Positions 29,301-32,300 of a stretch of DNA of 64,000 nucleotides are shown piece after piece. Origin of the DNA: a phage; the sequence record PZ674595.1, one strand, 5' to 3'. The position numbers are program-made. Within the stretch, counting starts at the first letter, position 1. Each line of letters begins with the position of its first letter.

Positions 29301-32300
29301 TTTATTGAATACTTGTTACTCATCGTTTCAATAGCTTTTGTCATCGACTGCATTTTCACTGGTGTCATTCGTAAAGTCTTTTCCCCGGTGCACGACGTAG
29401 TCATAAACGCTTTGGCTATCGTGCTCGTATTTAATTCAGCATTTGATGTAATCAAAGAGGTGGCAGCATGAAGGCCATCCCATTCGCGCTGTTGTTCCTT
29501 TCTTCGATCGTTGTGGCCGACACCACTGTTTATCAGTGTGAAATGTCTGTAGCCGACGTTAAGAATGGCGCTCTTACCGACGTCATAAAAGCACCATATG
29601 GAGCGATGGTCGTAGACAGCGGCGACCAGTTCTATGTTGTGCGTGACGATCGAGTGTTGTCATCCCCATATCTCACAAATCGTAATGGCAAATTAACCGG
29701 CGTCGGAGAAGACCACTTCGTATACAACAAATACAAGGGCTTCTATGGCGTTCACGCTTCTCAGCAAAGCTACCTTTTCGATGACTGCAAGGAGGTTGGA
29801 TAATGGCATTAACACTGGCAGGTCTGGAAATCGAGAAAACAAGCGGCTACTGGCGTGCTAAGGGTTTCAAGCAGCCTGGCATTCTTGAGCGTCTGGAACG
29901 TGAAGATGGGTATATCGTCCACCAGCGGCGTGAATGGCGTATGTACGATCCAGAAACAGGAAAACTGACTACAAAAGCCGGAACACTTTGGGGTCTGTTG
30001 AAGAAAATACACTAATAGCACCAACCACTGCGGTGAGTAGTCTGCTCACCGCATTCGTATCCAGCTCATTATCCACTGTAGTCAGTAACAAAACCTTCCT
30101 ACATATCTGCTAACCACTGTAGCGAGTAGACAGCCTTTCATTCGCATCAAACAACCACTATGGTGAGTATTGGAGTGAGATGTCCAGCGGGTATCCACTA
30201 TGGTGAGTAAGCCTTTGCTGTTTTCAGTGGATATCCACTCGCCACAGTGGATACGCTCAAAGATGAGGGCGACAACAACCACTATAGACAGTAAATTTTC
30301 CAAGATACCCAGTGACCACTAACCTCGCAGCCCTTGTTTCATCAGTGTTAGTGATCACTAACATTTAATTCAGTATTTGCATTCTACTGCCTACAGTGGT
30401 TATCAACAGATAACGATACTCACTATAGTGGATAGCGAATTACAGATATAAGTAAGGCTCACTACAGTGGATAGTGAGCCTTACTACTAACTACAGTGGT
30501 TGGGCTATTTGCGAGTCTTTGCCTTGCGCAACTCTTCGAGAAGCGCCAGTTCTTCTTTACTCAACATGACCATTTTGCCTTCTTTTTCGTCAGGCACAAC
30601 GTCGATAATGTCATCTTGATTCTCATCTGGGAGGCTATATTCCGTCTCATCATTATCGATTTTTGTTGATATTTGTGCCTGGCGTAACTTTGGCCGCCTA
30701 TAGTGGATGACGAAGTAGACCGAGTTTCCGCGCTTAACTTCCGTGTAATCGAGATATCCTATCTCTCGCAGCTGTTCCATAGCCTTTCTTACCGTCGCAT
30801 TCTGAGTAATAGTGCGACTTGTCAGATTAAGTCTGGCGCGTAAACGGGCTAGTGATATTGGTGCCGGATCAGGCGGCAAACTTTCAATAAAAGTATAAAG
30901 CGCCTGAGCGGATTCTTTTCTTGAGAGTTCGTTTATAGCCCGGAGTTGCAGAAGAACCTTTTTGTCGAACTGGTAGAGTTCGAAAATCTTGGGATCTGCT
31001 TTCAGTTCGACCGTATCGTGCTTGACACTATATTTTGCCGTTTGCACAAGATGCGTTACGTAAAACTCATCAGAGCCTTTGCTACGGAACGAGATGGTAT
31101 TTGTGGCAATACGGCTTAGCGAACTGTCCAGGCGTTTGCGTAACTTCGCTGATGACCTGGCGGTCGGAATGCCACACAGCCTTACAAACTCAACGAACGG
31201 CAACGTGACAGTATCGCCAACGACCTTGTGTTTGGCAAACGCGTGGATTATTCCCACCCACGTTTTAAAGTCGTTATCCATATCAAGCCGAAGGCCAGAG
31301 ATCCTTATGTCTTCGTACCCTTCGGCTTTTGCCAGAGACAGCTGTTTGAGTTCAGCAGAGGCATCCATAGAGACCATTTGCCCCTTTCTTCCTCTGGATG
31401 TCGATTTCAGCGTCGGAACGAAGAGGCCCAGACGCATCAAAGCAACAGGCTGAACAGTGTTATTAGTGTTAGGAACCAACGTAACAACTTCGCCTGTCTT
31501 TTTATCTGTTTCTGAAAATGCTTCAACGATCGCTATGTTTTTATTGCCGTTTTCGCTCATTCCAAATGTCTCTTGTTATTCGACGGCTTTGGTGGCCTTT
31601 GCTGATTACAGTGGATAGTAGCACTCATCACAGCGGTTATCCTACCGTCTATAGTGGTTTTTCTCCTCTCTATAGTGGTTGCTTTGCTCCCTATAGTGGA
31701 TTATTCGCTCTCTATAGTGGATATCGATCATGTCTGAAGGCAGATGGCACAACGGTTTGAGGTGGGCGGGGATCTTATTGGGTCTTTATGGGTCTCTTTG
31801 GTTCTCTTTGTGATCTGAATTACTGGATCGGGCCTGTGGATAAAAATCAGAGGATTTCAAGAACAGGTAACTCTACTCTTCTGTGGATATTTAAGGACAT
31901 AAGAATCATGACTAAGAGTAGAGTTTAAAATATATCTATGTATATCAGTATGTTAATGAAGAATTAAGTCATTAAGTTATCCATAAAAGACAATGTGCTC
32001 TACTCTCTACAGTGGATATATACAGCTCTCCAGAGTGGTTGTTTTACTCTTCATAGCGGTTATTCAGCTCTCTACAGAGGTTTCTTTGCTCTCCATAGTG
32101 GATGGCAACACCCTTTCAGACCAGTAACCGCAACGGCTAGAGGCGATCGGGGATCTCTTTGGATCTTCTATTTGATCTTACTTGGGATCTCTTATTTGGA
32201 TCTATCCAGTGGATAACTGGGATAAGTAAAACAGGCAAATGCAGATTAAGGTATGCCTAATGAGTTATCGTAGCATCGGCCAATAACTACTGAAAAAACG

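Follow-up and report, generated by a model that had tools for sequence, protein, structure and literature searches.

The stretch analyzed here, referred to as the window, comprises 64,000 nucleotides of sequence record PZ674595.1. Between positions 30021 and 32216 it holds the replication initiator gene repA, iterons on both sides of the gene, and, upstream of it, two tandem modules resembling the oriR of P1, each made up of a DnaA box, phased GATC repeats, a G+C-rich spacer, and 5 to 6 iterons 21 bp, or two helical turns, apart. At 100% identity, the window matches Escherichia phage Cyrano (pLF82), and the source element is this already known, SSU5-like phage-plasmid of E. coli. Matches of at least 99% to the window come from 63 plasmid records, and pMT1, pHCM2, and SSU5 match at about 81 to 83%. 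The mapped features are as follows.

30021..30503, no strand assigned: downstream iteron array, 12 iterons (matrix scan; inverted and direct repeat families)
30021, 30069, 30110, 30151, 30191, and 30275: the six inverted downstream iterons (matrix scan)
30215, 30235, 30384, 30416, 30455, and 30484: the six downstream iterons oriented like the upstream arrays (matrix scan)
30444..30492, minus strand: candidate repA terminator hairpin, an inverted repeat with a 15-bp stem and one iteron inside, just 3' of the repA stop codon
30505..31560, minus strand: repA, open reading frame of 351 aa, Rep_3-family (WH1-WH2) replication initiator
30691..30710, minus strand: weak iteron-like site within the repA coding sequence (matrix score, 13.8)
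31599..31724, minus strand: proximal iteron array, six direct iterons at 21- to 22-bp spacing (matrix scan and Tandem Repeats Finder)
31771..31829, minus strand: proximal origin-core repeats, with GATC at 31771, 31812, and 31826 (GATC map, tandem repeats)
31835..31843, minus strand: perfect DnaA box TTATCCACA heading the proximal module, homologous in position to the annotated DnaA site of P1 oriR
31850..31999, no strand assigned: AT-rich spacer between the modules, 29% G+C, with DnaA-like boxes at 31882-31890 (minus) and 31977-31985 (plus)
32000..32105, minus strand: distal iteron array, five direct iterons at 21- to 23-bp spacing (matrix scan and Tandem Repeats Finder)
32145..32202, minus strand: distal origin core, with phased repeats of AGATCC type that contain six GATC sites and align with the five annotated Dam sites of P1 oriR
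32208..32216, minus strand: DnaA-type box TTATCCACT, one mismatch, head of the distal module
47338..47931, plus strand: Dam-family N6-adenine methyltransferase, 197 aa (Pfam PF05869, 2.5e-38), given for context only

As the first-pass annotation had proposed, repA lies on the minus strand with iterons on both sides of its open reading frame. Its product matches the Pfam domains Rep3_N (1.3e-10) and Rep3_C (1.3e-4) and PHROG 775 (6.8e-146); a search against NCBIfam gave no match, and a PDB sequence search with RepA and the methyltransferase as queries gave none for either. RepA is 91 to 93% identical to the proteins of SSU5, pMT1, and pHCM2, 61 to 66% identical to RepFIB RepA, and 47.5% identical to P1 RepA (E=1e-71), so that by predicted protein identity its nearest classical family is RepFIB and not P1. 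Around the candidate terminator, a 76-nt stretch of RNA folds at -26.3 kcal/mol, and an Rfam scan of 29700-32500 did not find an RNA family. The repA promoter and operator would be expected to lie in the proximal iteron array, whose near end is 39 bp upstream of the gene's ATG. Because hits in a promoter and terminator scan were no more numerous than in shuffled sequence, we name no repA promoter. The proximal array contains a single consensus promoter match (31727 to 31700), which is not preserved in SSU5 or pMT1; between iterons 4 and 5 there is a conserved TAGGAT hexamer that resembles the -10 element of P1 PrepA but is not paired with a good -35.

Iterons were mapped with a weight matrix built solely from the 11 upstream iterons and scanned over both strands of the 64-kb window. 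The two upstream arrays of direct, about 22-bp repeats seen on first reading are there, six iterons in one and five in the other, spaced 21 to 23 bp, and Tandem Repeats Finder independently gives 21-bp periods at both. Replicons of the P1/RepFIB family have about five direct iterons of about 21 bp upstream of rep; P1 has five. Downstream of repA, the matrix recovers 12 independent iterons, six per orientation, with scores of 16 to 26 bits; the first-pass annotation was right that both orientations occur, and its count of about ten becomes 12. About 23 copies of one iteron are found around repA, with a consensus in the repA orientation of roughly WAWCCACTRTAGnGAGYA, and elsewhere in the window, beyond 30021-32105, no site on either strand scores above 14.6 or is comparable to the iterons. 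In SSU5, pMT1, and pHCM2, the equivalent of the site at 30691-30710 is identically placed and scores 13.6; as it falls in coding sequence, conservation alone is no proof of function. Across six diverged lineages, the proximal array is nearly invariant and the distal array is conserved. The downstream array is also present in SSU5, pMT1, pHCM2, and an Enterobacter plasmid and corresponds to incA of P1 and to repeats E-K of RepFIB; a second iteron array 3' of rep is a feature of the family, and by analogy this one would act in copy control and incompatibility.

The two upstream arrays belong to two copies of a whole oriR-like module. Within one genome, the two module cores of about 115 bp are 56 to 63% identical, and the best between-genome matches of a copy reach 66 to 67%; a tree of these short cores is too noisy to prove that distal corresponds to distal, and proximal to proximal, across genomes. 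At the outer end of each origin copy lies a predicted DnaA box, at 31835 in the proximal module and at 32208 in the distal one, each aligned with the P1 DnaA site. The perfect box of the first reading is the one at 31835-31843, and one-mismatch boxes lie at 31882 (minus), 31977 (plus), and 32208 (minus). The distal core has GATC sites at 32145, 32152, 32162, 32174, 32186, and 32199, spaced 7, 10, 12, 12, and 13 bp, so the seven initially reported within 32145-32202 are in fact six. No other 60-bp segment of the window has more than three, and at least six GATC sites fell within 58 bp in 0.13% of 20,000 random placements of the window's 267 sites. All six are invariant in the six lineages. In the family, at least five phased GATC sites stand between DnaA box and iterons, as they do in the distal copy; the proximal copy has just three. 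There, the repeated GGKTCTYTT units described earlier appear in Tandem Repeats Finder as a 10-bp repeat at 31778-31810 and are the GATC-depleted repeats of the module. In the repA orientation, the units without GATC read GAACC, GACCC, and GACCC; they are invariant in the six lineages and recur as GAACC/GACCC in Rahnella.

Between the modules, the AT-rich stretch of the first reading is the spacer at 31850-31999, which includes a perfect 12-bp inverted repeat (31869-31880 and 31914-31925). In Cyrano it holds the region's least stable 40-mer; this AT-richness is not conserved in SSU5 and pMT1, and across the six lineages the spacer diverges whereas iterons, GATC sites, and DnaA boxes are invariant. 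We therefore rejected the spacer as a conserved unwinding element, its AT-richness being lineage specific.

Comparison with named systems places the replicon. That it is of P1 type, as first suggested, is upheld by the homology of RepA (47.5%) and by a DnaA-box and GATC core that aligns base for base with the annotated P1 oriR. The upstream module is homologous to P1 oriR at the nucleotide level, and the 21-nt string TTATCCACTGGATAGATCCAA of the distal module is identical in P1, where the second DnaA box and first Dam site lie within it. The parts of P1 (oriR/incC, repA, incA; IncY) follow in the same order: DnaA boxes, phased GATC sites, G+C-rich spacer, five 21-bp iterons, repA, and downstream array. 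P1 differs in having one origin module where this replicon has two in tandem, in a RepA without the approximately 40-aa N-terminal and acidic, approximately 58-aa C-terminal extensions found here, and in its parAB, which does not adjoin the replicon in Cyrano. The P1 iteron, GATGTGTGCTGGAGGGAAA, is unrelated to that of Cyrano, and incompatibility specificity therefore differs; as the iteron sequence differs from those of both P1 and RepFIB, the replicon is not IncY, and among the database records examined related replicons are typed as IncFIB, none as IncY. RepFIB of F, P307, and pColV-K30 (REPI) shares the DnaA-box and GATCC-repeat core, including GGCCCGATCCAGTAA, but the F-type version has a single module, five GATC sites, and an iteron of ACATAAGCTGT type unlike that of Cyrano. 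The RepFIB layout comprises upstream origin iterons (BCDD'), downstream control iterons (E-K), and a DnaA site, and the downstream control iterons by themselves displace the plasmid (PMC11983097).

The origin core also aligns with the origins of Klebsiella and Pantoea replicons. The Klebsiella and E. coli O169 SSU5-like phage-plasmids carry their replicon at the same backbone position, between an ASCH-domain gene and a cra-like gene, with a DnaA/GATC core 78 to 79% identical to that of Cyrano and 81% identical to that of P1. However, they have a single module, a different RepA (48 to 51% identity), and a different iteron, GTATGCTGTCAGCGG, which looks like the exchange of a replicon cassette at a conserved backbone site. 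The replicon of Yersinia pestis pMT1/pFra, Salmonella Typhi pHCM2, and SSU5, in contrast, is the same as that of Cyrano, with a 743-bp origin region 80 to 83% identical and an identical layout of six distal GATC sites, five plus six upstream iterons, and 12 to 16 downstream iterons. The differences are in the inter-module spacer, AT rich in the Cyrano lineage only, and in the proximal head box, TTATCCACA in Cyrano and TTATACACA in SSU5 and pMT1. Cyrano thus has what marks the pMT1/pHCM2/SSU5/pLF82 group: RepA identity of at least about 90%, the same iteron, and the tandem two-module origin. A putative origin region of about 2.45 kb was reportedly described for pMT1 by Lindler et al. in 1998, with a RepA said to resemble those of RepFIB, RepHI1B, P1, and P7. 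In none of the database records examined are the iterons, DnaA boxes, or GATC core annotated.

We consider it highly probable that 30021-32216 is the plasmid-prophage replicon of an SSU5-like phage-plasmid, within the P1/RepFIB family of iteron replicons. It is an ordinary replicon of a known kind, already catalogued as IncFIB(pLF82-PhagePlasmid), a type name found in PMC12838234, and its sole unusual feature is the origin module in two tandem copies upstream of repA. In the collection searched, it is carried by 91 of 5,426 complete E. coli genomes (1.7%), and all 93 matches in these genomes are on plasmids, of roughly 105 to 125 kb. Together with a report that Cyrano is episomal, with about 5.5 copies for each chromosome, and inducible by ciprofloxacin (PMC9928086), this agrees with the plasmid-mode maintenance originally proposed. 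A defunct remnant was rejected, since repA is the only Rep gene annotated in Cyrano and the region is intact in 91 of 91 carriers, with neither module deleted in any. The copy number of P1 is lower than that of Cyrano, and copy control may therefore differ in detail.

How such a replicon would work can be sketched from P1, RepFIB, and mini-F, from which the following steps are carried over. RepA monomers would bind the origin iterons and, with host DnaA at the adjacent box, would open the GATC-repeat region. Dam methylation of the origin GATC sites would be required for initiation, and SeqA would sequester the hemimethylated origin after firing. On the iterons adjoining repA, RepA would repress its own promoter, and the 12 downstream iterons would restrain copy number by titrating RepA and by pairing with the origin iterons (handcuffing), which would also make them the main incompatibility determinant. 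Titles cited in PMC2865523 indicate that P1 and the RepFIB-type REPI replicon of pColV-K30 depend on Dam, and from homology to P1 and RepFIB we infer that this replicon is likewise sensitive to Dam and SeqA. The element's own methyltransferase, annotated in the Cyrano record as adenine methyltransferase, may by the same comparison have a role at the replicon.

A single RepA clade (SSU5, pMT1, pHCM2, Rahnella, and Pantoea) has the tandem layout throughout, whereas P1, F-type RepFIB, and the Klebsiella relatives have a single module, and the RepA tree (neighbor joining, 15 taxa, no bootstrap) is consistent with a single old duplication. What the two copies do is a matter of interpretation. Tentatively, and with slightly less than even confidence, we take the distal module, GATC sites intact, to be the Dam/SeqA-gated origin proper and the proximal module to be mainly repA operator and promoter and an extra handcuffing partner. 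This is because the distal module keeps all its GATC sites in eight of eight two-module replicons examined while the proximal one has lost two to three, because in most lineages few duplex segments are less stable than the distal GATC region, and because a Moellerella relative keeps only a distal-type GATC core, having lost the proximal repeats, with the second iteron array still adjoining repA. Yet the proximal module, with a perfect DnaA box and an adjoining AT-rich stretch, could equally be the working origin, and the strict conservation of its GATC-less repeats argues against a decaying copy. With the roles so reversed, it would fire under reduced SeqA sequestration, and the distal, GATC-rich module would be auxiliary, acting as a sink sensitive to SeqA and Dam, as a further partner in handcuffing, or in regulation of the divergent ASCH-domain gene. 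In keeping with this are the two further boxes on the proximal side, the least stable segment in the Cyrano spacer, the conservation of the GATC-less repeats as far as Rahnella, and the position of the origin iterons directly upstream of repA in P1 and RepFIB (for RepFIB, PMC11983097). We nonetheless judge reversed roles somewhat unlikely: neither the AT-richness nor the perfect box is conserved, with SSU5 and pMT1 having TTATACACA and a spacer of ordinary composition, Moellerella dispenses with the proximal repeats, and the closest match to P1 oriR is the distal core.

Both modules might instead be active, alternately or jointly, for example one methylation gated and one methylation independent, for differing host states or for hosts without Dam. 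Both modules retain their DnaA box, their phased repeats, and a complete set of iterons in every clade member, none of the 91 E. coli genomes has deleted either, and the inferred single old duplication fits as well; still, a split into origin and operator explains this conservation equally well, and we know of no precedent for two active origins in P1 or RepFIB, making this arrangement improbable. That the region or its distal module serves as a lytic origin after induction, used by the phage helicase, primase, and polymerase and not for plasmid maintenance, is very hard to credit. The element does encode its own helicase, primase, Pol III alpha and epsilon subunits, and ligase, and no separate lytic origin is annotated in it; but the architecture fits a plasmid-mode oriR/incA, P1 uses a separate oriL/repL for lytic growth, and the same two-module replicon maintains non-phage plasmids of 155 to 207 kb in Rahnella and Pantoea.

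The replicon maintains SSU5-like phage-plasmids, including Y. pestis pMT1 and S. Typhi pHCM2, and its map of iterons, DnaA boxes, and GATC sites serves the design of mini-replicons and of curing cassettes that exploit incompatibility; to judge from RepFIB (PMC11983097), the array at 30021-30503 would be the part to use in such cassettes. As Cyrano-type and pMT1/pHCM2-type elements have a common iteron, the map also helps to predict incompatibility between them. The duplicated origin is a modest question that leaves the general picture unchanged. The conserved duplication and selective loss of GATC from one copy nevertheless pose a small, testable question on how Dam/SeqA gating evolves in iteron origins. 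The two copies may have come to differ in role, a state conserved from the ancestor that the SSU5/pMT1, Rahnella, and Pantoea replicons share, with one remaining fully methylatable and SeqA gated while the GATC sites of the other were selectively replaced by nonmethylatable GAACC/GACCC, a history that we regard as unlikely. If true, it would give one RepA two modes of initiation or control, such as Dam-dependent maintenance at steady state and a sequestration-resistant mode.

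The replicon belongs to the P1/RepFIB family, and its upstream region (31599-32216) is a tandem duplication of one whole oriR-like module, which in repA orientation comprises a DnaA box, phased AGATCC-type repeats, a G+C-rich spacer, and five to six iterons. The first-pass annotation had proposed a P1-type replicon with a minus-strand repA and iterons on both sides, and both its architecture and its family assignment are supported. The features are as follows.

30021-30503, both orientations: downstream array of 12 iterons, six each way
30444-30492: hairpin with a 15-bp stem, directly 3' of the repA stop codon, including one downstream iteron
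30505-31560, minus strand: repA, 351 aa
30691-30710: weak iteron-like site (13.8 bits) inside repA, close to the 3' end of the ORF
31599-31724: proximal array, six iterons, 21-23 bp spacing
31835, minus strand: perfect DnaA box
31882 (minus), 31977 (plus), 32208 (minus): near-perfect DnaA boxes
32000-32105: distal array, five iterons, 21-23 bp spacing
32145, 32152, 32162, 32174, 32186, 32199: cluster of six GATC sites
47338-47931: Dam-family adenine methyltransferase (PF05869)

RepA contains Rep3_N and Rep3_C (WH1/WH2) domains. In tblastn comparisons its identity is 91% with the proteins of SSU5, pMT1, and pHCM2, 61-66% with RepFIB RepA from F-type plasmids, and 47.5% with RepA of P1 and P7 (E=1e-71). 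The annotated oriR of P1, which has a DnaA binding site, five Dam sites, and five incC iterons, is homologous to this module, and the exact string TTATCCACTGGATAGATCCAA is common to P1 and the distal copy. The same core can be aligned in P1, F-type RepFIB, Klebsiella IncFIB(K), Klebsiella and E. coli SSU5-like elements, Pantoea, Rahnella, and Moellerella. The replicon of pMT1, pHCM2, and SSU5 is the same as that of the window. MOB-suite types relatives as IncFIB, a PlasmidFinder type IncFIB(pLF82-PhagePlasmid) exists (PMC12838234), and IncFIB is reported to predominate among SSU5-group phage-plasmids (PMC7969092). An IncY assignment was ruled out because the iterons differ from those of P1.

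A weight matrix built from the 11 upstream iterons only, scanned over both strands of the 64-kb window, recovered the downstream array at 16-26 bits, 12 iterons where about ten had been noticed. Beyond 30021-32105 it gave three weak matches, the best at 14.6 bits. The two direct arrays upstream were also returned independently by Tandem Repeats Finder, as 21-bp periods. The 23 strong iterons share the consensus ~WAWCCACTRTAGnGAGYA in repA orientation. In many (e.g., 30069-30088, 31705-31724, and 32000-32019) the 5' half, WTATCCACT, matches the DnaA box TTATCCACA at 8/9 positions, so the targets of DnaA and RepA might overlap; P1 iterons, in contrast, do not resemble the DnaA box. The weak site within repA lies at the same position in SSU5, pMT1, and pHCM2, which coding constraint alone may explain. 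The hairpin behind repA is a possible terminator, and RepA binding could affect its formation.

Between the upstream arrays lie the perfect DnaA box, near-perfect boxes at 31882 and 31977, and an AT-rich stretch (29% G+C at 31850-31999), all as first described. A perfect 12-bp inverted repeat in this spacer, AACTCTACTCTT / AAGAGTAGAGTT (31869-31880 and 31914-31925), found in the Cyrano lineage only, brackets the DnaA-like box at 31882-31890, and a promoter-like 10/12 match on the minus strand (31956 to 31929) is directed through it toward repA. The GATC cluster is real, although it holds six sites rather than the seven counted within 58 bp at 32145-32202. Every other 60-bp window has at most three, and when the window's 267 sites were placed at random, 0.13% of trials had six or more in 58 bp; GATC is not depleted overall (245 expected). 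The GGKTCTYTT units are likewise present, not as a separate element but as the proximal counterpart of the GATC repeats. Mean column identity between the two copies is 79%, and the proximal one retains three GATC sites, its other three units reading GAACC, GACCC, and GACCC.

This asymmetry is conserved. When Cyrano is aligned with SSU5, pMT1, pHCM2, an Enterobacter plasmid, and a second E. coli lineage (77-83% identity to Cyrano), little or no variation is seen in the six distal GATC sites, the proximal module's three GATC sites and three GATC-less units, the iteron cores, or the positions of the DnaA-like boxes, and most divergence falls in the inter-module spacer. Non-phage plasmids from Rahnella and Pantoea (RepA identity 76-79% and ~70%, respectively) also carry both modules; in these the distal copy keeps 5/5 GATC sites and the proximal two to four; the GAACC/GACCC replacements are common to the Cyrano and Rahnella proximal copies. 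P1, F-type RepFIB, IncFIB(K), Pantoea eucrina, and the Klebsiella and E. coli O169 SSU5-like elements have a single module, and Moellerella has a single GATC core and two iteron arrays with a DnaA box between them. Because a neighbor-joining tree of RepA (15 taxa, no bootstrap) places the two-module replicons in one clade, with Moellerella as sister, the layout fits a single old duplication.

Which copy is the working origin can be argued either way. We favor the distal module, with somewhat less than even confidence, because it alone has all its GATC sites in every lineage (the window and comparison loci L004, L005, L006, L007, L010, L015, and L016), is nearest to P1 oriR, and is the type of core that Moellerella retains, the proximal repeats being gone there. 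However, the proximal copy holds the perfect DnaA box, and the strict conservation of its GATC-less repeats indicates that selection maintains it. It could thus be the origin itself or a second origin.

Analogy with P1, RepFIB, and mini-F suggests that RepA on the origin iterons and DnaA at the adjacent box would open the GATC-repeat region. The methylation state of these sites would gate initiation and allow SeqA sequestration. RepA on the repA-adjacent iterons would repress its own gene, and the downstream array would limit copy number and cause incompatibility. In RepFIB, the downstream block is sufficient to displace the plasmid, and the upstream block has no such effect (PMC11983097). DnaA assists opening of the P1 origin (summarized in PMC5043065), and titles cited in PMC2865523 point to Dam dependence of P1 and the RepFIB-type REPI replicon. 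A link between the element's own methyltransferase and origin control is speculation. The methyltransferase coordinates are 1 bp apart in the window and OV696614, thus placing an indel somewhere in 32400-47338.

Over the 2.5 kb around the replicon, identity is 100% with Escherichia phage Cyrano (OV696614), which is the phage-plasmid pLF82 of E. coli LF82. It is at least 99% with 63 plasmid records (E. coli, E. albertii, and Shigella) and ~83% with Salmonella phage SSU5. Cyrano is reported to be an episome of ~5.5 copies per chromosome, inducible by ciprofloxacin (PMC9928086). Its record annotates RepA, beside a cra-like gene and an ASCH-domain gene, but neither origin features nor a lytic origin (L001, L013, and L014). 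The element carries genes for a helicase, a primase, the alpha and epsilon subunits of Pol III, a ligase, and recombination proteins of its own (window ~2000-20000 and 46000). In P1, parAB adjoins incA, but here the partition genes (ParA, a MinD-like ATPase, and ParB) are distant from the replicon. The origin region is present in 91/5426 complete E. coli genomes, always plasmid-borne, and none of the 91 has lost either module.

Klebsiella and E. coli O169 SSU5-like phage-plasmids (L008 2560-2830 and L009 2565-2830) share the backbone neighbors and a DnaA/GATC core 78-81% identical to the Cyrano and P1 cores, but have another RepA (~48-51% identical) and another iteron, a pattern suggestive of a replicon cassette swap. 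The rep ORFs annotated in them (404-405 aa) begin ahead of the iterons, and their 5' ends are probably set too far upstream.

Lindler et al. (1998) reportedly presented ~2.45 kb of pMT1 as a putative origin region whose RepA is similar to those of RepFIB, RepHI1B, P1, and P7. The sole feature for which we found no description in the papers and records examined is the tandem origin in which one copy has selectively lost GATC sites. The first-pass finding is thus a correct reading of an already known replicon, and the tandem origin is a modest variant of it rather than a new kind of system.
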